From the NCBI GenBank assembly GCA_016202305.1, contig JACQPB010000034.1, positions 27,262 through 91,261 on the forward strand: DNA of 64,000 nucleotides, given 5' to 3'. This stretch comes from Candidatus Iainarchaeum sp. (GTDB lineage Archaea > Iainarchaeota > Iainarchaeia > Iainarchaeales > Iainarchaeaceae). Positions 10,458 to 48,445 of this stretch are shown one piece after another (the first letter of the stretch is position 1; every line of letters starts with the position of its first letter). A program made the translations under genes and the position numbers. The notes under the pieces are model-generated. The model was not told the DNA's origin. It made no database searches and saw only the letters and a list, made by a program, of their open reading frames with translations.

Positions 10458-11252
10458 TTGATGAATCACTTCGGCAAGGTGTATAAGCAGATTCTGAAGG
10501 GGATAGAGGAGAAGGGCGGCCTCGCTTTTACCGTGATAGACCCTCCTAATCAGGAGCCTGTCGTTGCCGGGAAAATCGCCAAAATGGCGCAGGAAGCTGG
10601 CATTGACGCTATTGCCGTGGGCGGGAGCGTCGGCGCGCAGGGCGAGCTCCTTGACCACACGATACTGCAGGTGAAGGAGAACTGTTCGCTGCCGGTCATA
10701 CTTTTCCCCGGCAACATTGCGAGCATGAGCAAGCACGCGGACGCTATTTACTTCATGTCGATGCTGAACAGCCTCGACCCTTACTATATAACCGGCGCCC
10801 AGATTGCCGCGTCGGCCCCTGTCAAGCGCACGGGCCTCGAGGTGATTCCGACATCCTACGTTATCGTGGAGCCGGGAAGGGCCGTTGGCTGGGTAGGCCG
10901 CGCGCAGCCCGTTCCGCGCAACCTGCACTACCTCGCTGGCATAACCGCGCTCGCGGGCCAGTACATGGGCTCGCACCTTGTCATACTCGAGTCCGGCGGC
11001 GGTGCCGATTCGCCGGCGCCCCAGGAAATGATTGCCTATACGCGGAAAATGATTGACGTGCCGCTGCTGATTGCCGGCGGCGTGCGCAACGAGAAATACG
11101 CCTATGATTGCATAAAGGCTGGCGGCGACATCGTGCATGTCGGCACGGCCGTGGAGAACGAATCGGACAACTTCGCCAAGGCGAAATCGGTGATGCAGAA
11201 AATTGCCGACGCGGTGAAAAGGGCCGGAAGGGAAAAGAGGCCCAAGGCGTGA
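10458..11252 (+). CDS. geranylgeranylglyceryl phosphate synthase (PcrB family)
   Basis: TIM-barrel PcrB/GGGPS signature: AIAVGGS, ILFPGN, LVILESGGGA and IAGGGV. Confidence 0.85.
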   Translation: MMNHFGKVYKQILKGIEEKGGLAFTVIDPPNQEPVVAGKIAKMAQEAGIDAIAVGGSVGAQGELLDHTILQVKENCSLPVILFPGNIASMSKHADAIYFMSMLNSLDPYYITGAQIAASAPVKRTGLEVIPTSYVIVEPGRAVGWVGRAQPVPRNLHYLAGITALAGQYMGSHLVILESGGGADSPAPQEMIAYTRKMIDVPLLIAGGVRNEKYAYDCIKAGGDIVHVGTAVENESDNFAKAKSVMQKIADAVKRAGREKRPKA

Positions 11253-11357
11253 GCGGCCCTTTAAAAAATATCTCGCCGAAGAACACTTCTCGCAGAGAGT
11301 ATTTGTCGGCCCATATGTCACAACAAAGATTTCCTGAATAAACATTTCCTGCCACTT

Positions 11358-12962
11358 TCAGTTGGATTTTATGCCAAGCTCGGTTTGCATAAAATCGCCC
11401 ATATCTTTTCCTGTTGCATATTGCAGGAATTCCTTAAGTGGCTTTGTGCACTTGACATCAGTTAACTCTAGGCTGCAATTGGAAAAATCGAATTCCGGCT
11501 CTGGATTATATACTTTTTTGAAAAATTCATCAGAGAGATAATCAGATTGTTGTAAATGCTTGAAAATACATCTGCCTAAATCATGTCCAACCATAGTTCT
11601 AAAAGGCAGATTCTGGCAACCTGCTGGAATAGGGGCTTCGTTAAACCCAACATCTTGGAATGACCTAAAGCCAGAGTAAATGGCCAGCCCATCAGCAGAG
11701 CCTTCGATTAGCCAACCACTGTCACCTTTGTACTTTTGTACCATGTTTGTTTGGAGTGAATGCGCATATTCGTGGGCAAATTCCTGAACAAGTATTTTTA
11801 CCCCTAAAGTTTTATAGGTTTCTTCGTCCCCGTAGTTGATTGAAACAGAATCACCAAAACCTAGATTGCCTTCAGCACCTAAAACAATCATGATTGTTCT
11901 GGGTCCATAAATTGCAGAAACGTTTCTGTTGAGCCCAGTAATGGCACTATACTTCGACTTTATGTTTTCAGCGTTTTTCTGCACCCCGTCAAAGTCAATT
12001 TTTGAATTTTCAGTTGCAATAAAATATGAAGATAGCGTGGTGCTTTTTTTGACAATCTTATAATTTAGGACGGTCGTCTGATTTGGAAGGAGTTTTGCAT
12101 CTGCAATAGGGGTTTCGTTTGGAATTAAAAACTTGATTTTTTTTGCGCAAACAATGTTTGGAATGCTATTCAGGCTTATTGAATTATTAGGGTCATAAAC
12201 TACTGAGGCGTTTTGAATAAGGTCAACCAGATAATATGTGCCAATTGGTTTTCCTTCAAGCTGTATTTCTAATGCAGATTCCTTGGCCCCTCCAGCGATT
12301 GAAACTGTCGGCGTATCATTTGGGCATTCCGCTCCAATTCTTAGATTAGCAGTTAACAAGCTCATTATAACGTTTGTTTCTTTTTCGAAACAGGTGTTAT
12401 ATGCCTTGAAACACGAGCTGCTTAGACATTCCGCACAAGTTTGTCCGCAGGCAAAATAATTTGGTTGATACCCGTCAAATGTCATAAAATGAAAACAACA
12501 TCTGCCTGAGGTTTGCAATGTGTCCCAAAGGCACACCTGATTTCCAGAGCATAAAACGCCGCCCATTTCATTACAGGCTTGTAAATCGCCATTTTCTTGT
12601 GTTTTTATAACAAGAACAATATTTGAGACCGGTGAAGAAATAAAAACTTCTTTTCCATTTGAAGCAGTTCCCTTGCTCACTTTAATGGCATAATTTCCCG
12701 GCAGCAATTGCATCGCCGCTTTACCATCTTTTCCTGTCAGAGCAATTTGGTCTATCGTGCCGTTTATTTTCATCCAGTTGCCTTGTGCTCCGCTTTCAAA
12801 TGAATAGTTCGAGAAAGCACTCAGGCTAGCGCCCTCAACAGGATTTCCAAACTTATCTACTACCCGAACCTCAACTAGAACCGTTGGGTCATTAATGCAC
12901 CCTGACAAAAAAATAGTAAGTATTAATGCTAAAGTAACAATCGCAATAAACTTCATGAACAA
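11358..12962 (-). CDS. secreted lipoprotein with HExxH zinc-metallopeptidase motif
   Basis: Signal peptide plus lipobox (LTIFLSGC), a Cys-rich middle, and C-terminal FAHEYAHSLQ. Lies in AT-rich DNA. Confidence 0.5.
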   Translation of the reverse strand: MFMKFIAIVTLALILTIFLSGCINDPTVLVEVRVVDKFGNPVEGASLSAFSNYSFESGAQGNWMKINGTIDQIALTGKDGKAAMQLLPGNYAIKVSKGTASNGKEVFISSPVSNIVLVIKTQENGDLQACNEMGGVLCSGNQVCLWDTLQTSGRCCFHFMTFDGYQPNYFACGQTCAECLSSSCFKAYNTCFEKETNVIMSLLTANLRIGAECPNDTPTVSIAGGAKESALEIQLEGKPIGTYYLVDLIQNASVVYDPNNSISLNSIPNIVCAKKIKFLIPNETPIADAKLLPNQTTVLNYKIVKKSTTLSSYFIATENSKIDFDGVQKNAENIKSKYSAITGLNRNVSAIYGPRTIMIVLGAEGNLGFGDSVSINYGDEETYKTLGVKILVQEFAHEYAHSLQTNMVQKYKGDSGWLIEGSADGLAIYSGFRSFQDVGFNEAPIPAGCQNLPFRTMVGHDLGRCIFKHLQQSDYLSDEFFKKVYNPEPEFDFSNCSLELTDVKCTKPLKEFLQYATGKDMGDFMQTELGIKSN

Positions 12963-13070
12963 GTAAAATCACCTGAATATTTAACTCTTTAGAGTTTCCG
13001 CATTTCCGGCGCCATTATTCACTATATTTAAACTTATGTAGACCTCGCCGAAGAACTCTTCCTGCCGCAT

Positions 13071-14000
13071 TCATTGTTTTTCTTCCCCGGCCTTTTCATT
13101 CGCGGTCATTTCCTTCACGACTTCGGGCAGGTAGTTCCTTGTTGAGAGCCCGGCCTTCCATCCTGCCGCTTCCAGCTTTCTGGTGGAGTAAATCCTGTCG
13201 GCCTGCAGGCGCTTCACGTATTCCGGCTTCAGGAGCTTGTTGAACTTCAGCACCGAGTTCAGGGCCACGATGATGTTTCCGAGCCAGAGCGGGACCTTCA
13301 TCGTATTGCCTTTCATGCCGAGCGATGCGCGGATGAGGTTCACGGTTTCCTCCAATGTTAGCGCGTCCTTCTCCGCCGCGATGAATGTTTCGCCGTAGCA
13401 CTCCTCCTTCCCGATGCAGAATGCAATCGCTTCGGCCGCGTCCTCGGCCGCGACAAGCTGCCAGCGGTTGCTTCCGCTTCCTATCAGCGGAAAGCCTTTC
13501 TGCACTGTCTCGGCTATCTGGCGCCAGTATTCATTCGGCCCGAGGACGAGCGCGAGGCGCAGTATAGTCACGTGGAAGACTTCCTGGTAAGAGAGGGCCT
13601 TCCTTTCAGCGTCAAGCTTGCTCCTCTCGTACTGGGTTTCAGGCGCAGGCGGGGTTTCCTCGCCCTTCATGCCCGGGAGAGAGCCGTAAACTCCTGCCGT
13701 GCTCACGAGAATGAACTGCTGCACCGAATTAGCTGCGCATGCCTCCAGCGCATTCTCCGTCCCTTTCACGTTCACTTCGTAAAGGTCTTGCGCTTCCTCA
13801 TCCAGGATTGCAGCGAGGTGCACGACAGCTTCCGCGTTGCTGAACGCTTTTCCGAGCTTTGCCTTGTCAAGCACGTTGCAGTTTTCCATGGTGCAGGCCG
13901 TCACTTTATGCCCGCGCTCCACGAGCTTTTTGCACACGATTTTTCCGAGAAAACCCTCGCTTCCGGTGACAGCAACCCTCATCAATCGCACGCCCTTCAT
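13071..14000 (-). CDS. NAD-dependent epimerase/dehydratase (SDR family)
   Basis: Rossmann VAVTGSEGFLGK at the N-terminus and the overall extended SDR architecture. Confidence 0.75.
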   Translation of the reverse strand: MKGVRLMRVAVTGSEGFLGKIVCKKLVERGHKVTACTMENCNVLDKAKLGKAFSNAEAVVHLAAILDEEAQDLYEVNVKGTENALEACAANSVQQFILVSTAGVYGSLPGMKGEETPPAPETQYERSKLDAERKALSYQEVFHVTILRLALVLGPNEYWRQIAETVQKGFPLIGSGSNRWQLVAAEDAAEAIAFCIGKEECYGETFIAAEKDALTLEETVNLIRASLGMKGNTMKVPLWLGNIIVALNSVLKFNKLLKPEYVKRLQADRIYSTRKLEAAGWKAGLSTRNYLPEVVKEMTANEKAGEEKQ

Positions 14001-15943: not shown

Positions 15944-16657
15944 TCATCTCTCCGGCTTTTTTATATAAACAACTCGACGCTCAAGCGATATTTTTGCGTC
16001 TGGAAGCAATTCTTTGAATTGTCCCATAAGTGTTTCTTCTGTCCACAAGTATCCTACAGGCTTAATCCATGAAGTTAATCTTAAAAGAAAATTTCTTATG
16101 CGGGCGTTGGGAATATTGAACGCCATAACACCGCCGTCCTGCATGCATTCATATAGTTTTCGGAATTTTTCTAGCTGTGCCATATGTTTTGGCTTGTCAG
16201 ATTCTCCAAGTAAATGAGATAGGCCAAGATGTGAAACAATACAATCTGGTCTGATATTGCCCAATCTGAGATATCTATCCAAATCATTGCTGTCGCACTG
16301 GATAAATTTCACATTTTTTATTTTATCCCATTCCTTATAAGAGTCTACAGAATACCCCAAAACCGTGGCCCTGTTTCCATAAAACGATGTCGCCTCTCTA
16401 ACCATGGCCCCTCCACCGCAACCCCAGTCAAGGAGTATTTGTTTTTTCCCGGTCGCATCAAACCGCTTTAGCAAGAAATCGTCTTTGCCAAAAATTCTTT
16501 GGAACGTCCTGCGTATTTTAGTAAATTTTGTAAATTCAATCGGCCAGCCCCAATATCGCTCCATAATTTCACTTTGAGGCCTGCCTTTAGAGTCTACCCC
16601 TCTTCTAAATGTAGTCGGCAACCTCCCTACCTTTCTTCTGGGGTCATAAATAGGCAT
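15944..16657 (-). CDS. class I SAM-dependent methyltransferase
   Basis: Motif I LLDWGCGGGAMV; located in AT-rich DNA. Confidence 0.6.
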   Translation of the reverse strand: MPIYDPRRKVGRLPTTFRRGVDSKGRPQSEIMERYWGWPIEFTKFTKIRRTFQRIFGKDDFLLKRFDATGKKQILLDWGCGGGAMVREATSFYGNRATVLGYSVDSYKEWDKIKNVKFIQCDSNDLDRYLRLGNIRPDCIVSHLGLSHLLGESDKPKHMAQLEKFRKLYECMQDGGVMAFNIPNARIRNFLLRLTSWIKPVGYLWTEETLMGQFKELLPDAKISLERRVVYIKKPER

Positions 16658-16688: not shown

Positions 16689-18038
16689 TCACCTTATCCT
16701 GAACTTCTTTTTCTTGGCGAACATTTTCTGCAGCTTCTTCATGTCCACGCCGTCTCCCTTCCCTAGCTTCTCCGCGTCCATCGCGCTGAACTTGCTGAAC
16801 ACTTTCCTCATTTTCTTGAAGCTCTTGAGGAGCTCGCGCACCTGCTCCTGCGTGGTGCCGGAGCCACGCGCAATCCTGGCTATCCTGCTTTTGTTGAGGG
16901 TTTCCGGGTCGGACCTTTCCTTCGCGGTCATCGAGTCTATGATGTGCCCGAACTTGTCAAGCTTCTGCTCCCCCATCTCCGCGAACTCCTTAGGCATCTG
17001 CGCCCCAATGCCCATCATGTCGAGCACCTTGCCGAGCGGCCCCATCTTCCGAGCGGCCTTCATCTGCTGGTAGAATGTCTGGAGGCTGAAGTTTTCGCCC
17101 AGCACGTCCTCGGCGTCAAGCCATTCTTCTTCCTGTATTTCCTGCGCCTTCTCAAGGAGCGCCTGCAAATCGCCGTATCCCATTATCCTGCTCAGGTAGC
17201 GCACGGCGTCGAACTCCTGTAGGTCCTCGGCTTTCTCTCCTGTGCCGAGGAAATATACCTTGGCCCCGGTTGCAGCGCATGCAGCGAGCGCGCCTCCGCC
17301 CTTGGCCGAGCCGTCCATTCTAGTAAGGACGACGCCGTTCATTCCCACGAGCGCGTGGAAAGCCTGTGCCTGCTTCTTCGCTACCTGTCCGACATCCGCC
17401 CCTATGACAAGCCATTTCTCCGTCGCGCCGAATTCTCGGTCTATGGTCTTCAGCTCTTTTGAAAGCTCCGTGTCAAGGGCGCTCCTGCCGGCGGAATCGC
17501 ATATCACGAGGTCGCATGCCACGAGGGCCGCGAGCCCCTTGCGCACGGCCTTGCCCGCGTCCTTTTCCTTCTCGTCGCCGTAGAATTCCGAGCCTGTCTT
17601 CTCCGCTAGCGTTCGCAGCTGCTCTACTGCGGCCGGCCTGAAAACGTCGGCTGCAAGGAGGCCCACTTTCATGCCGCGCTTCGAGTACCACTTCGCGAGC
17701 TTGCCGCATGTTGTCGTTTTGCCATTCCCGTTTAGCCCGATGAGCAGAATCCTCCGGGGTTTTTCCGGCGGTGCGGAGCGGCCTCCCAGCATTTGCGCCA
17801 GCCTGTCGTGCGTGGCCTTTATCACGTGCTCGCGCCGGCTGATTCCGGGGGGAAGGTCCTTAAATGCGTCTTCCTCTATGTCCTTGCTGAGCTTGAGCAC
17901 GAGCGCCAGTTCGACGTCGGCTGAAATCAGCGCGCGCTGGAGTTCCTTCACCGCTTCCTTGACCGAGGCTTTGTCAAGCGAGGCGCTGTTCCTCAGCCTC
18001 TCCATCGCCTTCCTCAACGATTCGCCAAAGCCCATCAA
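16689..18038 (-). CDS. srp54: signal recognition particle protein SRP54
   Basis: N domain, a G domain with GLNGNGKTTT and DSAGR, and a C-terminal methionine-rich M domain. Confidence 0.9.
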   Translation of the reverse strand: MMGFGESLRKAMERLRNSASLDKASVKEAVKELQRALISADVELALVLKLSKDIEEDAFKDLPPGISRREHVIKATHDRLAQMLGGRSAPPEKPRRILLIGLNGNGKTTTCGKLAKWYSKRGMKVGLLAADVFRPAAVEQLRTLAEKTGSEFYGDEKEKDAGKAVRKGLAALVACDLVICDSAGRSALDTELSKELKTIDREFGATEKWLVIGADVGQVAKKQAQAFHALVGMNGVVLTRMDGSAKGGGALAACAATGAKVYFLGTGEKAEDLQEFDAVRYLSRIMGYGDLQALLEKAQEIQEEEWLDAEDVLGENFSLQTFYQQMKAARKMGPLGKVLDMMGIGAQMPKEFAEMGEQKLDKFGHIIDSMTAKERSDPETLNKSRIARIARGSGTTQEQVRELLKSFKKMRKVFSKFSAMDAEKLGKGDGVDMKKLQKMFAKKKKFRIR

Positions 18039-18044
18039 ATCGCC

Positions 18045-19220
18045 CTAAAAATCATCTTCATTTTTGCCCTTCACAAATTCCATGAACAGTCCATGGAAAA
18101 AATGGTAATTGGCCCTCCTAGGCTTATTCAAAATTCCTTTTCTGACAGCTTCCTGGATATATGGTGCCACCTCGGTGCTTTTCATATGTAATGCTCCAAC
18201 CACATCTTTGAAAAGGAATTCTTTCCGCTTCACGCTTTTTGCAACTTTGATAATGACTTTTTTAGCTTTTGGGGATATCGGGTGGAACATCGGGTTAAAA
18301 AAATCTTTTTCCAGCTGGAAAAGAATTCTTGGGCTGGCCATGCCATAATGTGATTCGGTAAGCCGGTTTTCGTTCTCTTTCAGCTGGTCAAAGACATGGG
18401 CGCACATCGAGACGACAACATAAGGGTGGCCCTCGCTCTTTTCGAAAATTTTCATTTTCACGGACTCGTCGCAGTGCACGCCTACGGTGGAAAGTTTTCT
18501 GTCTATATATTGCGATATTTCATGCTTTGTGAAATTTTCAAGCGCTGATGTCGGGAAAAACCTGTTGAGTGGTGAGAACGATTCTGACATTCTTTCAGGA
18601 AAGTTGAGTTTGCCTGACAGGACTATGCTGTATTTTGCCTCGCTCGCCAGTCTCTGGAATGTTTCACGCAAGAATTCCAATGCGCCTTCCACCCGCTCCA
18701 AAGCTTCAGCTTCGTCTATTAGCACAACTATGGCTGAGTAGTCATCCCTGACTTTATTCCAAATTCCGACAAAATTTTTCCTCAGGATGGATTGCGCCGC
18801 GATTTTTTTCTCTTCTATCCTAAGGCTGAATTCCTTGTAAGAAAATTCTGGCTTCAATGTCTTAATCCAGTCTCCAATCCCGGAAATTTTCTCCATGAGC
18901 ATGGAATTCGAGAGCATTTCTTGCTTTATTCCCAGAACTAGATAATCAGTTAGTGTAGGTATGTCGCTTACACTTCCTTCATAGTTTGACATCCTGAATA
19001 CGAGGCAGCGGTTTTTCCTCGCCAAATCCTCCATTTTCGCAAGAATAGAAGTTTTCCCCATCCCTCTATTGCCGGTGATGCTCATGTTCATCGGTGAACC
19101 GTGCATTGTCTGTGCCAGATTTTTTTGGAATTCCTCCAATTCCTTGTTTCTTCCGACAAAGAACTCTGGCAGTGCGGGTACTTGTGGATTAAAAGGGTTG
19201 TACCTGATGATTTTTACCAT
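18045..19220 (-). CDS. archaeal ATPase family protein (Arch_ATPase/AAA+ with C-terminal wHTH-like region)
   Basis: Walker A GNRGMGKTS and Walker B VVLIDEAE; 391 aa; AT-rich DNA, followed by a 330-bp non-coding spacer. Confidence 0.55.
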   Translation of the reverse strand: MVKIIRYNPFNPQVPALPEFFVGRNKELEEFQKNLAQTMHGSPMNMSITGNRGMGKTSILAKMEDLARKNRCLVFRMSNYEGSVSDIPTLTDYLVLGIKQEMLSNSMLMEKISGIGDWIKTLKPEFSYKEFSLRIEEKKIAAQSILRKNFVGIWNKVRDDYSAIVVLIDEAEALERVEGALEFLRETFQRLASEAKYSIVLSGKLNFPERMSESFSPLNRFFPTSALENFTKHEISQYIDRKLSTVGVHCDESVKMKIFEKSEGHPYVVVSMCAHVFDQLKENENRLTESHYGMASPRILFQLEKDFFNPMFHPISPKAKKVIIKVAKSVKRKEFLFKDVVGALHMKSTEVAPYIQEAVRKGILNKPRRANYHFFHGLFMEFVKGKNEDDF

Positions 19221-19549
19221 ATTGTTTACACAGTTAGAAATGTTTATAAATATTCACTAACTTTACAAATATTCTAATTTTAGCTCGCCGGCCGCTATAA
19301 CCCTACGGGCTTTGCAAAGGCGCGAATCGGTGCGAAGTATGTGGCTGATAGATGTGGATTCTGGCTGAATAACTCCCTATTCACAACTGCTGTTGGGGTG
19401 TGGGTAGTTCGCAAGAAATGTAATTTACCGCCGCCTATTTGGGCTATTTTTTCTTCAACACTTGCCCTTTACCGCATTTTATGGTTTTTGTGTTATCCTG
19501 CTTTTAAATAGTTTTCCCGGCAGGCTTGCGCCGCCGGTATTTGCCTTAT

Positions 19550-19759
19550 TCATGCCTTCACTACTTGGACCTGTTTTGTGCCTGCCGTCGCGTCGAAGAG
19601 GTCTTCCTTTTTCTTCGTCCTGAAATTCGCGTATGGCCTGTACTTGGTCTTTGTCCATGCTTCCGGCTGCTTCTTCCTGAGTTTGAATTCCTGCTTCAGG
19701 AACTTGACGCGCAGCTGTTCGCTGGACTCCAGTCCTATGAGTTCATCGAGACTCGCCAT
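19550..19759 (-). CDS. small basic hypothetical protein
   Basis: 69 aa, Lys/Arg-rich, with no recognisable motif. Co-oriented downstream of the TRAM gene. Confidence 0.3.
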   Translation of the reverse strand: MASLDELIGLESSEQLRVKFLKQEFKLRKKQPEAWTKTKYRPYANFRTKKKEDLFDATAGTKQVQVVKA

Positions 19760-19794
19760 TTTCCAATCCCCCTTTGAGTTGCAAAACCAAGACT

Positions 19795-20136
19795 TTATTT
19801 CTCTTCTTCCGAGTCCACGGATTCGTCTCCCATGTCCTCGTCTTCTTCCGCATCTTCCTCGGATTCGTCTCCCGATTCCTCTTCCGAAGGCTCCTTGTCC
19901 TTGGGCTCTGCCTCGCCAATTACCTCTCCGAAGCTCACCTTTCCGCGGACGGCATTGACCTTGACCTTCACCTTGTCGCCCTTCTGGACATTCGGCACTA
20001 TTATGACATAACCCTCTATCTTCGCTATGCCATCACCCTTCTCCCCAATGCCCTCAATCTCGACATCATAGGATTCGCCTTCCTTCACGGGTATGTCGCC
20101 GAACCTGTTGCCCGGCCTCCTGTCGTTTCCCATCAT
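19795..20136 (-). CDS. TRAM domain protein with acidic C-terminal tail
   Basis: YDVEIEGIGEKGDGIAKIEGYVIIVPNVQKGDKVKVKV is a classic standalone archaeal TRAM OB-fold. The tail is poly-E/D/S. Confidence 0.65.
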   Translation of the reverse strand: MMGNDRRPGNRFGDIPVKEGESYDVEIEGIGEKGDGIAKIEGYVIIVPNVQKGDKVKVKVNAVRGKVSFGEVIGEAEPKDKEPSEEESGDESEEDAEEDEDMGDESVDSEEEK

Positions 20137-20489
20137 GTTTATTCACTCCTCCTGTAACGATGCGGACGCGGCAAGCACCTTTTTTTGAAGCGCGTAAGGC
20201 CCTGTAGAAAAAGGTATTTGCCGAAAATCCAATCCTACATATATGCTGCGCAAGTCATATTTAAAGTAGACGATTTACAAAGGCCCCAGCAGTCGGGGCC
20301 ATGCCAAAACGCCAGGAATCCCGTAAACGCCGTTAAATAGGCCATATGGCTCTGTAGCCCATGGGTTGGCAATAAGCGCGGGGTTGGTGGAGAGGCCCTC
20401 CAAATAGCCCTTATTATGTAGAAGTCAGCATGTTTTGCCCGCCAAAGCGCGTTTATACTGAATAGGGAAAGTGCCTTAAAAGAAGAGCT

Positions 20490-20783
20490 TTATTTCACGA
20501 TTTTGAGCTGGCCTTTCTTGCCAGTCGAGACCTGGAGTTGTCCCCTGAACTCGGAGCACCAGCCTTCCGTAATCTGGATGGTGTTGCCCTCGTTGACCTG
20601 CTCGCACTGCTCGTTCCAGAGAGTGACGCGCACTTCCTGGCCGTCCTCATCCTTTCCTGCGCAGTTGCACACCGTGCCGGAGCCCCTGTCATTCGCGTAC
20701 TTGCGCGGCTCTTCCTTCGAAACCACTTCAAGCGTCATTTCCGGGACAGGCGTATTGGCCCTTAGTTCAGCGACCTTCATCAA
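20490..20783 (-). CDS. single OB-fold ssDNA-binding protein (RPA-like SSB)
   Basis: 97 aa with an MKVAELRANTPVPEMTLEVVSKEEPR...VTLWNEQ...EFRGQLQVSTGKKGQLKIVK pattern typical of short archaeal SSB. Confidence 0.65.
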   Translation of the reverse strand: MMKVAELRANTPVPEMTLEVVSKEEPRKYANDRGSGTVCNCAGKDEDGQEVRVTLWNEQCEQVNEGNTIQITEGWCSEFRGQLQVSTGKKGQLKIVK

Positions 20784-20890
20784 ATCACTCTAAAACTTCG
20801 CCCAGAAAATGCTTATAAATGAAACACTTTGCCTCCAAAAAACAGGATTATTTGTTTGTCGGACATGCCTATCCCAAACCCTTACAGCCG

Positions 20891-21340
20891 TCACGGCCCT
20901 GCCTTCGTATCTACCCCAATCTTCTCCACGAACGCTTTCATGCCGTATTTCCTGATTTCCCTTGCCTTGTTAAAGTCCCGGTCTTCCGTCACCATTGCCT
21001 CCAAGCCGCGCTCCTTGGCAACAGCGTAATGGATGGCATCCCTTGGCATTAACCTTACTTGCTCCATTGCTTCAACAGTCAGGTTTGCAGTGTCCCTTGT
21101 GGCATTCACAATTTCGAGGTTTCCCATCATCAGGAAATTCCTGCCAGCTTCCATGGCCGCTTCCCGCCCCTTGTTTTTCAGCACCAGAAACACAAGTTCC
21201 TCGAAAGTAACAAAGCTTGTGACACCAACGAAAGCCCCTTCCTGCATCGCTTTTATGATTGCCGCGGCGTGATGCCATCTTTCGTCCATGCTCAGGGCAA
21301 GGTACGCGAAAACGGTTGTCTCGAGGTAATATCTCGTCAT
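20891..21340 (-). CDS. PIN-domain toxin (VapC-like)
   Basis: PIN acidic residues (ETTVF..., VTED.DF) and a 4-nt overlap with the upstream antitoxin. Confidence 0.65.
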   Translation of the reverse strand: MTRYYLETTVFAYLALSMDERWHHAAAIIKAMQEGAFVGVTSFVTFEELVFLVLKNKGREAAMEAGRNFLMMGNLEIVNATRDTANLTVEAMEQVRLMPRDAIHYAVAKERGLEAMVTEDRDFNKAREIRKYGMKAFVEKIGVDTKAGP

Positions 21341-21603
21341 GGAAACGCCTTTGGGAACCCTTCCACAAACTGCTTCTTGAGTTTGCTAGGGCTGACCTTG
21401 ATTTTTTTCCCGGAAAAGGCTATTCTCCTGAAAGATTCTATCACCTCATCAGACCTCGGCCTTGAAATGAGCACGCCGTTCTTCTCTTTTCTGGCCGCAA
21501 CTTTCCCGTAGGGCGATATGCCATATTCATCCCGCATGCTCTTTGGTATGAGCACCTGCCCCTTAGGCCCGACGCTGATTAGGACTTCCGCCATGAGTAC
21601 CAC
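21337..21603 (-). CDS. AbrB/SpoVT-type antitoxin (VapB-like)
   Basis: N-terminal swapped-hairpin motif VGPKGQVLIPKSMRDEYGI. Confidence 0.6.
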   Translation of the reverse strand: MVLMAEVLISVGPKGQVLIPKSMRDEYGISPYGKVAARKEKNGVLISRPRSDEVIESFRRIAFSGKKIKVSPSKLKKQFVEGFPKAFP

Positions 21604-21708
21604 CTACAGGAATACTTTGGTATAACTGTTATTTATACTTTTTGGCTGCAAGGGCTTTGTGCAAGTAAATCCTAAAATGGAGCATTACTTGCACAGAAAT
21701 TTGAATAT

Positions 21709-22215
21709 TTACACAGACAGGAAATCTGGAAATTTATTAATTTTGTTCGGAAACATTTTCTCAAACAATTTTTTAAGTTGTGGATAAAAGTCAGTTATCT
21801 TTTCCATTTTATCTAATGGAATATTAGTTGCTCTGTGTTGTATTTCGTTTCGTAATTTGTGAAATTTAGTAATTGCCTCCTGTAATTCTGTTTTCTCATC
21901 CTCTTCTAAACGAAGATTTCTCAAGACTATTTTCAGGCAATCCCCATAATCAATTGTTCTAGTTTCCTCCTCAGACTTGGTTATTTTAAGCCCATCTTTA
22001 AGAACACTCTTTTCAATAAACTCAATTATGAATCCTTTCTCGACTAAAAAAGCTTTCATTAAAAGCTCAGTTGCATGGTCAAGTTGAACTATTGCAATTC
22101 TCTCTATCATGTATCTTCGAGTTTCAGGATTACGCACTTCAAGAATTGTTTTTACATTTGTGATAAGCTCTATTGCAAAATCACACATATTTGTTGCATC
22201 TTCTATTTTTAGCAC
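21709..22215 (-). CDS. HEPN-domain protein
   Basis: C-terminal Rx4H motif (KLRNEIQH); 168 aa; very AT-rich DNA. Confidence 0.45.
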   Translation of the reverse strand: MLKIEDATNMCDFAIELITNVKTILEVRNPETRRYMIERIAIVQLDHATELLMKAFLVEKGFIIEFIEKSVLKDGLKITKSEEETRTIDYGDCLKIVLRNLRLEEDEKTELQEAITKFHKLRNEIQHRATNIPLDKMEKITDFYPQLKKLFEKMFPNKINKFPDFLSV

Positions 22216-22344
22216 AATATACTTTAGGGGGATAAATCTTTTATTGTCAATTCATTTGTTTCTTGTATTACCTGCACGATGTTAAAGCATAGGGCTTTGA
22301 GCAGTAGCTCGTTTTTCTGTGCCCCAAGGTCTTCGCTCTTGGTA

Positions 22345-23658
22345 TCATATTATCCTGTCTATTATGAATCCCGGCCTGAACTCCAGCAGGTCATCGTGGC
22401 CCTGTCCCGTGCCGATGTAGAGTATGGGCTTGTGCAGCTTGTGGAGGAGCGAAATAGCGGTGCCGCCCTTGGCGTCGGTGTCAATCTTCGTGAGCACGAA
22501 GCCGTCTATCCCTATTGCGGCGTCGAACTCCGATGCCTGCTCCAGGAGTGCCTGCCCGGTGTAAGCTTCGCCGACATATATCTTCATGTCGGGCTGTACC
22601 ACGCGCACGATTTTCCTGAGTTCGCCGAGGAGGTTCGTGTTCGTTTCCTGCCTTCCTGCAGTGTCGATGAGCACGAAGTCTATTCCCTTGGCCTGTGCGG
22701 CCTTCACGGCGTCAAAGGCGACTGCCGCGGGGTCCGAGCCGTACTGGTGCTTCACCACCTTGATGCCGAGGCGTGCGGCATGCGTTTCTAGCTGTTCGAT
22801 GCTCGCGGCCCTGAATGTGTCCCCTGCCGCGAGGATGCATGTCCTGCCTCTTGTCATCAGCATTTTCGCGATTTTGGCGATTGTGGTGGTCTTGCCCGCG
22901 CCGTTCGGGCCGAGGAAGAGCACTTTCGTGGGCCTTTTGCCTGCAGCGAGCAGGTCAATGTGCGGGGTTTCCATTATTTTTTCAAGCGAGGCCCTTATCT
23001 CCTGTTTCAGGAATTTTGTGAGGTCGGCGCTCGCCGGTATTTCCTTTCCCACGAGCCTTTCCCTGAGTTCCTTGACAATCGCGTTTGCGGTGTCCTGCTC
23101 GACATCCGATTCGAGCAGGCTCAGCTCGAACTCGTCGAAGAATTCGCGGGTTTCCGGCTCCGTGACTTTTATTTTTCCCCCGAGGAAGCCGCCGATTTTA
23201 GTCAGTATGCCTGTGCGTGCCCTGAGTTCGCGCTTTCCGTCCTCTTTCCCTTCGCGGATTTTTTCCGGTGCTGCCTTTCCTTCCGCGCCGGTTTCATTTT
23301 CGGCCACGGCGGCTTCTTCCTCCGGCGCTTCTTCCGTTTTCGGCTCTTTTGCGGCGGAAGTTATTTTCCGTGCGCGGCCCCTCTCTTTCCGTGCAGGCTT
23401 CTCTTCAGGCGCCTGCGGCTCTTCCTTGGTTTTTTCCTGTTCCGGTGCGGCGGGTGTCTCTATGGATTTTATTTTCGGTGGCTGTGGCACGCTTTCAGGG
23501 GGCGTGGTTGCGGTTGCCGCTTCCGCAGGCTTTTCTTCCCGGCCTGCATCGGCCGGATTTTCGTTCGGCCTTTTGGCCTGCAGTGTTTCCTTGAGCTTTT
23601 CCGTGAAGCCCGATATTTTTTTCTTCAGGAAGTCAAACATAAGAATGAATCGCCGCAA
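22345..23658 (-). CDS. ftsY: signal recognition particle receptor FtsY
   Basis: Low-complexity E/K/P-rich N-terminus, then an NG domain with GPNGAGKTTT, DTAGR and GTGQ. Confidence 0.9.
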   Translation of the reverse strand: MRRFILMFDFLKKKISGFTEKLKETLQAKRPNENPADAGREEKPAEAATATTPPESVPQPPKIKSIETPAAPEQEKTKEEPQAPEEKPARKERGRARKITSAAKEPKTEEAPEEEAAVAENETGAEGKAAPEKIREGKEDGKRELRARTGILTKIGGFLGGKIKVTEPETREFFDEFELSLLESDVEQDTANAIVKELRERLVGKEIPASADLTKFLKQEIRASLEKIMETPHIDLLAAGKRPTKVLFLGPNGAGKTTTIAKIAKMLMTRGRTCILAAGDTFRAASIEQLETHAARLGIKVVKHQYGSDPAAVAFDAVKAAQAKGIDFVLIDTAGRQETNTNLLGELRKIVRVVQPDMKIYVGEAYTGQALLEQASEFDAAIGIDGFVLTKIDTDAKGGTAISLLHKLHKPILYIGTGQGHDDLLEFRPGFIIDRII

Positions 23659-41852: not shown

Positions 41853-42254
41853 TCAGAGCAGCTTGAGGTGCTTCGTGAACCCGTCTATCTCGCTTTCCGG
41901 TGCGGGGCCAATAGCAATGCACGTGATTGTCCCGGATTCCAGCTGCGTCCTTCCCGCGTCCTTGACGAGTGCTGTAGGGAGCGCCTTTTTCGCTTTCTCG
42001 AAAATCTCGAGCAGTTCCTTCTCGCTGCCCGCCTTGAGCACGACCTTGGCTGTCCCCGTGGCCTTCCATTCCTCCACCCATCGCGGGTTCACCCTCAAGG
42101 ATTTCTCGTAAGCGTCCAGGGAAGCGTGGCTGCATTGGGCCGCGATTTTGCCCTTGCCCATCTTGAGGTCTGAGCGCACTACTATCGCCTGCTTGAACTG
42201 CATGGACAAAAAATGGAGCAACCGGAATTTAATACTACCCCAAAAAACCTTCAA
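41853..42254 (-). CDS. pth2: peptidyl-tRNA hydrolase Pth2 (archaeal type)
   Basis: VVRSDLKMGKGKIAAQCSHA...CIAIGP is canonical PTH2. Confidence 0.85.
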   Translation of the reverse strand: MKVFWGSIKFRLLHFLSMQFKQAIVVRSDLKMGKGKIAAQCSHASLDAYEKSLRVNPRWVEEWKATGTAKVVLKAGSEKELLEIFEKAKKALPTALVKDAGRTQLESGTITCIAIGPAPESEIDGFTKHLKLL

Positions 42255-42660
42255 AAATATTGGCTGCGGTTATTTCGGGGTGTCTTTCAAAGCTGCCTGT
42301 GTCCTCTGTCACAATCGATGTGACCCCATTCCTTTCCATGGTGGCAATCAGCAACGCGTCCCAGAATGGTATTCTGTGCTCTGCACTTATTTTAAGTGCC
42401 AGTACCGAATCAGTGTAATTGTCCTGAATGAGGTGGAATCCATTTGCAAAATTCTCTGCGGCTTCGTGTATTTTTTTTGCTTCAATTTTTTTCTTCAGGC
42501 ACACAGAAATGAATTCCCTGATGTTCTGGAGAGAGAGGAAATACCTGTTGCCATCATTCTCTATGCCACTTAGCCATGCATTTGTTACAGCCTGCTTTTC
42601 CGGTTCCTTTGTGTCGATTGCATAAACCAGTATATTTGTATCCACTAGAAAGTCACTCAT
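42235..42660 (-). CDS. PIN-domain toxin (VapC-like)
   Basis: FLVDTNILVYAID at the N-terminus and TEDTGSF near the C-terminus. The start is taken at MSDFLVD. It overlaps pth2 by 20 nt. Confidence 0.6.
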   Translation of the reverse strand: MSDFLVDTNILVYAIDTKEPEKQAVTNAWLSGIENDGNRYFLSLQNIREFISVCLKKKIEAKKIHEAAENFANGFHLIQDNYTDSVLALKISAEHRIPFWDALLIATMERNGVTSIVTEDTGSFERHPEITAANIFEGFLG

Positions 42661-42886
42661 AGGCCTCAGCCCTTGAAAATTTCCCAATGCCGAGGTTCTT
42701 TGCGTTTTTTGCCATTTTAAGGATCCGGCCGAAGGCTTCCTTCCTTGATTTTTCCCTTTCAAGAAGGTCTACGGCGTCCTCGGCGGTATTTGAGATTGCG
42801 CCCTTTTTGTCTCCATACATATCCTTTGCCAGTTTTCGCAGTTTTTTATCATGGTTATCATCCATGAATAAAACTATCTGTGGCAT
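42653..42886 (-). CDS. putative antitoxin (VapB-like), partner of the PIN gene
   Basis: 77-aa charged protein overlapping the PIN start. A palindromic operator lies upstream. Confidence 0.4.
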   Translation of the reverse strand: MPQIVLFMDDNHDKKLRKLAKDMYGDKKGAISNTAEDAVDLLEREKSRKEAFGRILKMAKNAKNLGIGKFSRAEAYE

Positions 42887-48193: not shown

Positions 48194-48445
48194 ATGTATG
48201 AAACAACCCTTTCATCAAAAGGGCAGTTGGTGCTGCCCGCAAAGGCGCGTGCCGAAAGGAAGCAGCGGCCCGGCACAAAATTCAAGGTTTTCCCTACGCC
48301 TTTCGGGTACGAGCTGATAGAAATTCCGAAAAATCCGCTAAAGGCTCTTTCAGGCCTTGCAAGCCACTTGGATATTTCTTCAGCAGACATAAAAAAGATG
48401 AGGAGAGAGGATGACAAAAGAAGGGAAAAACTCTTTGGTATTTGA
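48194..48445 (+). CDS. AbrB/MazE-family antitoxin
   Basis: LSSKGQLVLPAKAR is a swapped-hairpin motif. Overlaps the downstream PIN gene. Confidence 0.6.
   Translation: MYETTLSSKGQLVLPAKARAERKQRPGTKFKVFPTPFGYELIEIPKNPLKALSGLASHLDISSADIKKMRREDDKRREKLFGI

Follow-up and report, generated by a model that had tools for sequence, protein, structure and literature searches.

The DNA analysed here, which we call the window, is a 64-kb stretch (64,000 nucleotides) of a Candidatus Iainarchaeum genome, and every coordinate below is a position in it. Between the signal recognition particle (SRP) genes srp54 and ftsY, at 18045-22215, it carries genes for an AAA+ P-loop ATPase, a small basic protein (orf69), a TRAM-domain protein, a protein with a single OB fold (OB97), a PIN–AbrB pair (PIN149 and AbrB88) and a 168-aa HEPN protein (HEPN168; NCBI HY544_02990, deposited under 'Candidatus Diapherotrites archaeon'), together with two non-coding spacers and the relic of a transposase gene (Table 1). 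All genes between 13 and 27 kb lie on the minus strand. The original prediction, made from this sequence, had the flanks right, and open reading frame (ORF) and Pfam evidence confirms that all the genes it listed are present; orf69, the transposase relic between ftsY and the HEPN gene, and a low-GC methyltransferase gene on the far side of srp54 (15944-16657) come in addition. It had taken the whole for one accessory islet, possibly for defence. The block is, on the contrary, a conserved row of core genes with separate variable slots, not a single defence islet.

Table 1. Features of the srp54–ftsY region and its flanks (window positions)
Feature	Position	Strand	Remarks
Methyltransferase-like gene, 237 aa	15944-16657	-	Methyltransf_23 27.7 bits; in the srp54/A24-peptidase slot, outside 18045-22215
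srp54, core flank	16689-18038	-	SRP54/SRP_SPB/SRP54_N; begins 6 bp past the ATPase stop
AAA+ P-loop ATPase, 391 aa	18045-19220	-	AAA_16, AAA_22 and nSTAND1 above thresholds
ATPase promoter-proximal region	19221-19282	-	~60 nt 5' of the start, 87% identical to L060
Spacer 1, non-coding, 329 bp	19221-19549		Between ATPase and orf69
orf69, small basic protein, core	19550-19759	-	MASLDELIGLES...KTKYRPYANFRTKKK; syntenic in L004-L007 and L060
TRAM-domain protein, 113 aa, acidic tail, core	19795-20136	-	PF01938 50 bits
Spacer 2, non-coding, 353 bp	20137-20489	-	Conserved TATA box, sequence block and GGAGG 5' of TRAM
OB97, single OB-fold SSB/RPA-like protein, 97 aa, core	20490-20783	-	Ssb-like_OB and NCBIfam SSB, sub-cut-off
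PIN149, PIN-domain VapC-like toxin, 149 aa	20891-21340	-	PF01850 64 bits
AbrB88, AbrB/SpoVT-like VapB-like antitoxin, 88 aa	21337-21603	-	4-bp overlap with the PIN gene (ORF coordinates)
Gap AbrB/HEPN, 105 bp	21604-21708		
Hairpin, 11-bp stem	21658-21695	-	14 nt past the HEPN stop; close to the inner boundary of the AT-rich fragment
HEPN168, stand-alone DUF3644-like HEPN RNase-like protein, 168 aa, GTG start	21709-22215	-	RNEIQH motif; AF2 model, Foldseek, PDC-S64 and PDC-S19 matches
Gap ftsY/HEPN, 129 bp	22216-22344		Contains the transposase relic
IS5-like transposase relic, last ~38 codons and stop	22224-22340	-	tblastn with three intact transposases
ftsY, core flank	22345-23658	-	SRP54 GTPase domain

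The core row became apparent from seven Iainarchaeota/Diapherotrites-like contigs of metagenome-assembled genomes (MAGs; L001-L007), found by SRP54 (68-76% identity) and searched with the window proteins by tblastn; a gene called absent from a relative is absent at this locus. A conserved order, S19e–DUF–L39e–L31e–eIF6–LX–PfdA–ftsY–OB97–TRAM–orf69–srp54–A24 peptidase–ribD, is visible in full in L004, L006 and L007, and in L005, whose contig starts upstream of the OB gene, from there on. Within this row ftsY is 55-58% identical and syntenic in L004, L006 and L007, OB97 is 64-75% identical and syntenic in the four relatives L004-L007, the TRAM gene is syntenic in five (L004-L007 and L060), and orf69, 70-81% identical, is found in the TRAM–srp54 interval of every visible relative (L004-L007 and L060). 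Since the order ftsY–OB–TRAM–orf69–srp54 is kept in four related MAGs, TRAM, OB97 and orf69 are core genes. The ATPase, PIN, AbrB, HEPN and methyltransferase genes gave no tblastn match at this locus in L004-L007, the methyltransferase gene likewise none there in L001-L007. Conservation across relatives is in this way true of three genes of the block and not of the remaining ones.

What varies is the content of the gaps. The ftsY/OB gap is occupied by the AbrB–PIN pair and the HEPN gene in the window, by a methyltransferase-like gene in L004, by a 240-aa gene on the opposite strand in L005 and by its 260-aa homologue, also on the opposite strand, in L006; in L007 it is empty, with 135 bp from ftsY to OB97. 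Between orf69 and srp54, the window and L060 have the ATPase gene, L004 a GT2 glycosyltransferase gene and L005 a 145-aa ORF. The gap between srp54 and the A24 peptidase gene harbours the methyltransferase gene in the window and radical-SAM and aminotransferase genes in L060. The contig of L060 begins just upstream of TRAM and its ftsY/OB slot therefore lies outside it; within its 12,958-bp locus the window PIN, AbrB and HEPN proteins have no match.

Base composition agrees with this division. Each segment was compared with every same-length segment of the 64 kb (mean GC 52.2%), and the fall of GC in patches, as originally described, holds in this formal comparison: the HEPN gene (GC 0.316; GC at third codon positions, GC3, 0.26) has a z of -4.1 and belongs to the lowest 0.2%, while the ATPase gene (GC 0.429, GC3 0.50) reaches z -2.35 and the methyltransferase-like gene at 15944-16657 (GC 0.412, GC3 0.39) z -2.4. 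TRAM (0.538), OB97 (0.565) and orf69 (0.514) are ordinary for the window, as are the PIN (GC 0.511, GC3 0.61) and AbrB (GC 0.506, GC3 0.62) genes, GC3 ranging from 0.61 to 0.75 over the TRAM, OB97, PIN and AbrB genes; srp54 (0.59) and ftsY (0.57) stand at the upper end of the window range. Along the block GC thus runs 0.43, 0.51-0.57, 0.51 and 0.32. Some 15 low-GC patches of like kind are scattered across the 64 kb. The composition is significantly non-uniform, as a mosaic and not as one AT-rich block. A single island would be contiguous, missing as a whole from relatives and uniformly atypical; here the core genes interrupt it. The largest low-GC patch lies elsewhere (11213-13208, GC 0.41) and encodes a 534-aa protein (11358-12962), whose hydrophobic N-terminal segment may serve as a signal sequence and whose only match, CarboxypepD_reg-like, is sub-threshold.

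The small core genes and the spacers fit the picture of a housekeeping row. The TRAM protein scores 77 bits with NF053605 ('TRAM RNA chaperone', cut-off 85). For OB97, announced as a single-stranded DNA-binding protein (SSB), the OB fold resembling SSB/RPA stands, but every SSB model stays sub-cut-off (Ssb-like_OB 22.4 bits, NCBIfam SSB models 42-48 bits); orf69 has no Pfam match. The two spacers of about 330 bp turned out to measure 329 and 353 bp and to be non-coding as stated. Neither they nor the rest of the region contain an Rfam family (gathering threshold or E<=1) or a tRNA (ARAGORN), and these searches gave no sign of RNA genes in the two spacers. The OB97 promoter, TTTATAAGCATTT, is conserved across relatives, and upstream of TRAM a TATA box (TTTAAATA), a sequence block and a GGAGG are conserved in an alignment of the window with five relatives (A3). 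Because these three elements are conserved among relatives, spacer 2 is core regulatory DNA. The block itself, AGGATTGGAtT...GCAAATACC, follows the TATA box at ~20200-20275, ~70-110 nt 5' of the TRAM start; it is common to most relatives, is partly degenerate in L005 and L007, and gave neither a consensus RNA structure nor an Rfam match. Spacer 1, beyond the ~60 nt of the ATPase promoter, is not alignable with L060.

The ATPase had been called 'Arch_ATPase/AAA+'. Its AAA+ nature is clear (AAA_16 37.9 bits vs cut-off 32.6, AAA_22 34.1 vs 27, nSTAND1 29.1 vs 27.1), but the Arch_ATPase model proper (PF01637, ATPase_2) scores 19.7 bits against a cut-off of 33.2. A single-sequence search of the PDB found no relatives, and the family profile matched only a RuvB lid (2e-4) and 2fna (E 0.004). 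Homologues of ~385 aa form at least 146 clusters (45-61% identity, mean column identity 60%); named sources are DPANN lineages throughout (Micrarchaeota, Nanoarchaeota, Woesearchaeota and Naiadarchaeales), and none was found in viral contigs (IMG/VR). Wherever it was seen the gene stands alone, in four different neighbourhoods in all: orf69/srp54 in the window and L060 (L060:1783-2958), next to orc1/cdc6 in a Micrarchaeia contig (L061:5001-6158), within a SecY/ribosomal-protein cluster (L063:4001-5176) and beside S2 (L064:4001-5209). Between the window and L060 the ATPase is 94% identical in protein and ~85% in DNA, the corresponding figures for srp54 being 75% and 72%; a synonymous divergence (dS) of ~1.0 and a ratio of nonsynonymous to synonymous divergence (dN/dS) of 0.034 indicate strong constraint and weaken the idea of a recent transfer between the two. 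The picture is of a single gene under strong constraint that changes its neighbourhood, and nothing links it functionally to the HEPN or toxin–antitoxin genes; it could be a mobile single-gene cassette. In 5/5 genomes it is AT-richer than its surroundings (0.43/0.52, 0.41/0.51, 0.39/0.60, 0.465/0.626 and 0.317/0.348), so that a gene for 385-400 aa may lie up to 21 GC points under its host DNA.

A single AT-rich defence islet, in which the ATPase would sense infection and the HEPN and PIN proteins would act as effectors, has some appeal, as the ATPase, the toxin–antitoxin pair and the HEPN gene sit within 4.2 kb on the same strand, two of them are AT-rich, and the ATPase displays weak nSTAND1, BrxD and 'DS41_1 anti-phage' similarities. 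These are confined to the P-loop region. The architecture is an AAA+ core with a lid and a short C-terminal region; the sensor repeats plus effector domain, or conserved partner, of STAND-type sensor NTPases were not seen, and PADLOC matches among 34 family members are inconsistent and indicate no common family, so that the proposed sensor role has nothing to support it. Moreover, the compositionally normal, syntenic TRAM, OB97 and orf69 genes intervene, the three accessory pieces have three compositions (0.43, 0.51, 0.32) in independent slots, and the pieces occur apart: L060 has the ATPase at the same site with no PIN, AbrB or HEPN match in its visible locus, and such an ATPase does not recur within 3 kb of HEPN homologues. 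We regard this reading as hardly credible.

The HEPN protein, in turn, is well characterized by its motifs and fold. According to Anantharaman et al. 2013 (PMC3710099), a HEPN domain is recognized by an Rx4-6H motif that ends helix 3 and has a polar residue (N/D/H) behind the R, by a second conserved acidic residue in helix 2, typically as Ex3[KR], and by an insert separating helices 2 and 3 of an up-down bundle. A single-sequence AlphaFold2 (AF2) prediction (predicted local distance difference test, pLDDT, 49.5) was replaced by an alignment-based model of pLDDT 89.1 and predicted template modelling (TM) score 0.85. In this model R122-N123-E-I-Q-H127 closes helix 105-127 just ahead of a loop, E50-L-L-M-K54 lies within helix 34-59, and the helical up-down bundle carries a ~45-residue insert between helices 2 and 3, as expected of HEPN. 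The best Foldseek matches in the PDB (7bxo, 5yep, 6m6u, 2hsb, 8xdj and 7ae6) are toxins of HEPN–MNT (minimal nucleotidyltransferase) systems and AF_0298. In an alignment of 66 family sequences (A2), E50, K54, L57, F118, R122, N123, I125 and H127 are invariant, and R39, D46, A48, H119, Q126 and R128 nearly so. The original description of a very AT-rich 168-aa Rx4H protein without an MNT partner is thereby borne out: no nucleotidyltransferase domain occurs among the genes at 18-22.4 kb, HEPN168 is not part of an HEPN–MNT pair there, and a tblastn search of the window with the nucleotidyltransferase carrying a helix-turn-helix (HTH) from L042 gave nothing significant.

The family is small. A single-sequence search returned 11 clusters and a profile search 66, of 5.8 billion; an exhaustive profile search of 1.84 billion representatives gave 23 at E<=1e-30, 48 at <=1e-10 and 171 at <=1e-3. 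Members have 123-211 aa, most of them 157-168, and all stand alone. Ten distant profile matches (242-646 aa) were scanned: the match falls near the N-terminus in 10/10, and some of them bear DUF3644, HEPN, HEPN_Apea, OLD-TOPRIM, SWI2/SNF2 or zinc-ribbon regions. DUF3644 (PF12358) is the best Pfam match of HEPN168; it is matched at E<=1 by 8/11 close relatives (best E 2.5e-6), and some relatives carry a precomputed PF12358 match. Together with the sub-threshold score of HEPN168 itself, this places it as a sister or outlying group of DUF3644. Among PADLOC models run against the 66 family members, PDC-S64 matched 40, PDC-S19 27, DUF3644 7 and HEC-08 one (at E<=1e-3). HEPN168 itself ends 41 residues past H127 and has no Cys-rich tail, which sets it apart from HEC-08. 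We conclude that it is a genuine HEPN protein with an intact catalytic constellation, a minimal stand-alone relative on the DUF3644 branch.

How the gene came to the ftsY/OB slot can be approached from its borders. Three intact transposases from HEPN-homologue loci give one common tblastn match in the window, at 22340-22239 in the ftsY/HEPN gap (KSEDLGAQKNELLLKALCFNIVQVIQETNELTIK). It is 59% identical over 34 aa to residues 370-403 of the 413-aa L043 transposase (E 4e-5; E 0.002-0.003 with the others), starts directly past the ftsY stop and continues in frame to a stop codon at 22226-22224, 8 nt ahead of the GTG of the HEPN gene. Because the relic begins right after the ftsY stop, the remainder of the transposase gene appears to have been deleted up to the essential ftsY. 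An AT-rich, TATA-like stretch before the HEPN start falls inside the relic and may now act as the HEPN promoter. On the other side lies the hairpin, whose region has a minimum free energy of -23.9 kcal/mol against -15.0 for shuffled sequences (z -3.1). The AT-rich fragment of ~0.7 kb (about 21650-22344) is therefore made up of three parts, the 3' relic of the transposase gene, the HEPN gene and the hairpin.

HEPN homologues were gathered from 23 loci, ~20 of them non-redundant, whose neighbouring ORFs were clustered and scanned for domains. The hosts are archaeal, as judged by neighbours such as RNA polymerase A, L7Ae, S12, thermosome and proteasome genes, with a GC of 27-45%; the homologous genes themselves have 25-36%. 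Because the same low GC sits here in a host of 52% GC, the HEPN gene seems to have been imported recently. A viral origin was considered and abandoned, no relatives of HEPN168 or of the ATPase being found in IMG/VR contigs. At five loci (L043, L046/47, L048, L050 and L056) an intact transposase of ~400-413 aa adjoins the HEPN homologue, on a side that varies among loci; besides DDE_Tnp_1 it has a SWIM finger at the N-terminus, and with NF033579 scores of 120-132 bits, slightly short of the required 140, it counts as IS5-like. Restriction–modification (R-M) genes are further recurrent neighbours: Vsr and a C5-methylase in L043, a methyltransferase and a BsuBI/PstI endonuclease directly upstream and an McrB-like AAA_5 protein downstream in L045, and type IIG Eco57I/MmeI-like enzymes in L050, L057 and L058. 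The homologues of L046/47 and L048 have a DruA-like protein (PF14236, E 6e-80) nearby, and small AbrB-like proteins adjoin those of L034, L043 and L048. The company of the homologues fits a defence or conflict role, as originally proposed for a lone HEPN RNase next to a toxin–antitoxin module. In the region itself PADLOC finds no known complete defence system. Taken together, the gene is recently imported and, as far as sequence comparison can tell, probably a defence-type single-gene RNase.

Some of these loci deserve a word of their own. On two different archaeal contigs the DruA-like gene (L046:4691-5881, L048:1-1132) adjoins both the SWIM-finger IS5-like transposase gene and the HEPN homologue; no DruB-E was seen in these loci, each of which spans only a few kb. 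In an Aenigmarchaeota contig (L042:1006-1581, and L041) the HEPN homologue P0004 ends in a CxxC...CxxC tail and is preceded by a 191-aa winged-HTH nucleotidyltransferase, the only MNT-like neighbour seen in the family. In L033 (4904-7591) a HEPN homologue and three small unannotated ORFs are located between nusA and the S12 gene of the conserved row rpoA–L7Ae/L30e-type–nusA–S12–S7, which repeats the arrangement of the window, where a core row likewise offers a slot. At this locus the RNA polymerase A'' gene contains an intein.

One may go further and suppose that a SWIM-finger IS5-like lineage carries or mobilizes the HEPN RNases of this family in DPANN archaea, as antitoxin-free immune effectors or addiction factors, the window preserving a fossil of one such event. 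We consider this rather unlikely. Inverted repeats were not found in 20700-22400, nor copies of the spacers elsewhere in the window, nor target duplications, and none of the terminal inverted repeats sought around transposase and HEPN genes in L043, L046, L048 and L050 was convincing, because of which the HEPN gene is no more than a possible passenger of an insertion sequence (IS). Either it is such a passenger, or both elements merely gather in the same hot spots.

A less favourable view of the same remains would be that the HEPN gene is an inert hitch-hiker of a decayed insertion event, with no current function. The neighbouring transposase is indeed cut to its last ~38 codons, the GC3 of 0.26 shows no amelioration and partner genes are lacking. 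Against this, the ORF is full length (168 aa, compared with 157-168 in most of the family) and retains every invariant and nearly invariant A2 residue. The deletion of the transposase, too, stopped 8 nt before the HEPN start and left the TATA-like stretch, which fits selection, or just a recent event. On balance an inert gene is improbable in our opinion.

Conversely, the AT-rich genes could be native housekeeping genes of odd codon usage, HEPN168 serving in RNA processing and the ATPase as a replication or chromatin factor. The strong conservation of the widespread ATPase family (60% column identity, dN/dS 0.034) and its place next to orc1/cdc6 in one Micrarchaeia genome would suit this, as would the fact that some HEPN families process RNA (PMC3710099). 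Yet the HEPN family has very few members and a patchy distribution (66 clusters of 5.8 billion; 23 representative clusters at E<=1e-30), its gene is at this locus in no visible relative and is flanked here by the transposase relic, and its homologues elsewhere accompany R-M genes and insertion sequences. As for the ATPase, its neighbourhood changes in each lineage examined and its gene is AT-richer than the host in all five genomes. We give a native origin very little credence.

Next to the HEPN gene, the PIN–AbrB pair suggested at the outset is upheld by the PIN domain (PF01850, 64.1 bits vs cut-off 23.6) and by the 4-bp overlap of the two genes, although the AbrB models remain sub-cut-off (MazE_antitoxin 21.4 vs 24.7, TIGR01439 21.9 vs 28.3). 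As in VapBC, the PIN toxin gene follows a small gene for a DNA-binding antitoxin in one operon, and PIN149 and AbrB88 form a plausible VapBC pair. Candidates in PIN149 for the four conserved acidic residues of the PIN active site, picked by eye, are E7 (usually D), E47/E48, D101 and D119/D121; its sequence has no match in the PDB. The pair has an AT-rich upstream stretch of its own and a near host-like composition. The window holds other candidates of this kind: a second PIN gene (49 bits), preceded by a small ORF, at 42235-42886 in another low-GC patch, and a further AbrB-like ORF at 48194-48445 (SSKGQLVLPAKAR) suggest several VapBC-type pairs in the genome. In L060, an RHH–PemK toxin–antitoxin pair (12040-12608 and from 12745) is found beside an intein-containing radA.

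Their adjacency raises the question whether HEPN, AbrB and PIN constitute a three-gene module in which AbrB88 neutralizes or represses both HEPN168 and PIN149. The AbrB-like proteins at three homologue loci (L034, L043, L048) speak for it, that of L034 (85 aa) being encoded 45 bp upstream on the same strand, and in the window only 105 bp lie from the HEPN stop to the AbrB start, with both genes on one strand. However, GC steps from 0.32 to 0.51 from one gene to the other, and the interval contains a stable hairpin and a TATA-like, AT-rich stretch. The AbrB88 gene overlaps the PIN gene in the way classic for VapBC, and no similarity was detected between AbrB88 and the AbrB-like proteins next to the homologues. 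Such proteins are missing from the surroundings of most homologues; at one locus an HTH-nucleotidyltransferase takes their place. We think such a module unlikely; the adjacency of the HEPN gene and the VapBC pair is best read as two events within one permissive slot.

The explanation that we hold to be the probable one is a housekeeping row whose gaps are variable slots filled independently, the import of the HEPN gene and its defence-type role included. Different Iainarchaeota lineages would have filled the intergenic gaps of the conserved row with different genes. In the window, the ftsY/OB slot would contain an older AbrB–PIN pair, nearly host-like, and a younger AT-rich HEPN fragment; the orf69/srp54 slot would have received a promoter-plus-gene cassette of the solitary ATPase, and the srp54/A24 slot the methyltransferase gene. 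The HEPN gene probably came from a DPANN archaeon of low GC, either along with an insertion sequence or beside one. Going by motif conservation only, HEPN168 would be a dimeric, metal-independent RNase working through R122/N123/H127 and E50/K54, and most likely a compact single-gene defence or abortive-infection effector, or else a conflict toxin.

Several points weigh against this explanation. Five to six relatives only are visible, every one a MAG contig, and the absence of the accessory genes from them is established at this locus only. The mobile unit is undefined, with neither terminal inverted repeats nor target duplications. Conflict-type neighbours in the window amount to the VapBC pair and the IS relic, with no R-M or other system, so that the defence role rests on the contexts of the homologues in other genomes. 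As regards the protein, the Foldseek E-values are weak (0.06-1), though with a probability of ~1 and TM scores of 0.59-0.70 on the target; the HEPN168 profile finds no sequence relative in the PDB, and there is no solved relative; and the DUF3644 score of 24.6 bits (E 2.2e-5) lies under the cut-off of 27.6. Finally, how an unpartnered HEPN RNase stays harmless is not accounted for.

The value of these results lies mainly in a correction, what looked like a defence islet being a conserved translation/SRP row with hot-spot gaps. In itself this is nothing out of the ordinary, a compact archaeal genome with accessory genes in its variable slots, and it illustrates that even very compact DPANN genomes acquire conflict genes singly between essential genes. 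Modestly new are two families: a small, unannotated stand-alone branch of archaeal HEPN proteins near DUF3644, HEC-08 and PDC-S64, with an IS5-like companion fossilized here, and an uncharacterized ATPase family that is compositionally foreign in each genome examined. An enrichment of DPANN archaea in compact candidate systems of a single gene has been reported (PMC12988326), and the recurrent R-M, DruA-like and IS neighbours of the HEPN homologues fit it. HEPN168 would offer a tractable minimal HEPN for studying the control of an unpartnered RNase, and the ATPase family, widespread and strongly constrained in DPANN-type archaea, merits a separate study.

Compared with known systems, the accessory genes show both familiar and distinct traits. 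The AbrB–PIN pair is arranged as in known VapBC pairs, with a small AbrB-like gene upstream, a 4-bp overlap and a PIN domain, and differs, on sequence inspection, by the E at the first acidic position of PIN149 in place of the usual D. The ATPase shares a P-loop AAA+ core with lid with Arch_ATPase (PF01637; 2FNA, SSO1545), the matches being weak, and its match to Orc1/Cdc6-like proteins is limited to residues 17-66 around Walker A. It scores under the cut-offs of both Orc1/Cdc6 and PF01637, no Cdc6 lid or winged-helix domain was detected, and it belongs to a tight ~385-aa DPANN-type family of its own.

For HEPN168, the closest solved folds are HEPN–MNT toxins (SO_3166/HepT–MntA; 5YEP, 7BXO, 7AE6), which are likewise small stand-alone Rx4H domains. 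Their sequence identity to HEPN168 is 10-14%, and HEPN168 has the ~45-residue insert between helices 2 and 3. In contrast to these systems, its gene has no adjoining MNT gene, and only one of about 20 homologue loci has an HTH-nucleotidyltransferase upstream.

HEC-08 is a single-gene system made of a DUF3644 HEPN domain with zinc fingers that protects E. coli from phages; it needs the histidine of its Rx4-6H motif, H128, and its structure resembles SO_3166 (5YEP) (bioRxiv 10.1101/2024.01.29.577857). H127 of HEPN168 is the equivalent of this required residue, and 5yep is among its top Foldseek matches. HEC-08, PDC-S64 and PDC-S19 have an N-terminal HEPN domain of the same type, but they are proteins of ~340-360 aa or with C-terminal zinc fingers, of which only the first ~110-150 profile positions match. 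HEPN168 is devoid of any C-terminal module; consequently target recognition or regulation must differ from that of the HEC-08 and PDC proteins.

The DUF3644/EC042_2821 family, lastly, has in common with HEPN168 the RN-x3-H and Ex3K motifs, and R-M genes adjoin HEPN168 homologues as described for that family (PMC3710099). The typical fusions of DUF3644/EC042_2821 to winged HTH, restriction endonuclease or Zn-ribbon domains are absent from the HEPN168 family with its stand-alone domains of 135-211 aa, and while DUF3644/EC042_2821 was described as bacterial, the HEPN168 family is archaeal, of DPANN type.

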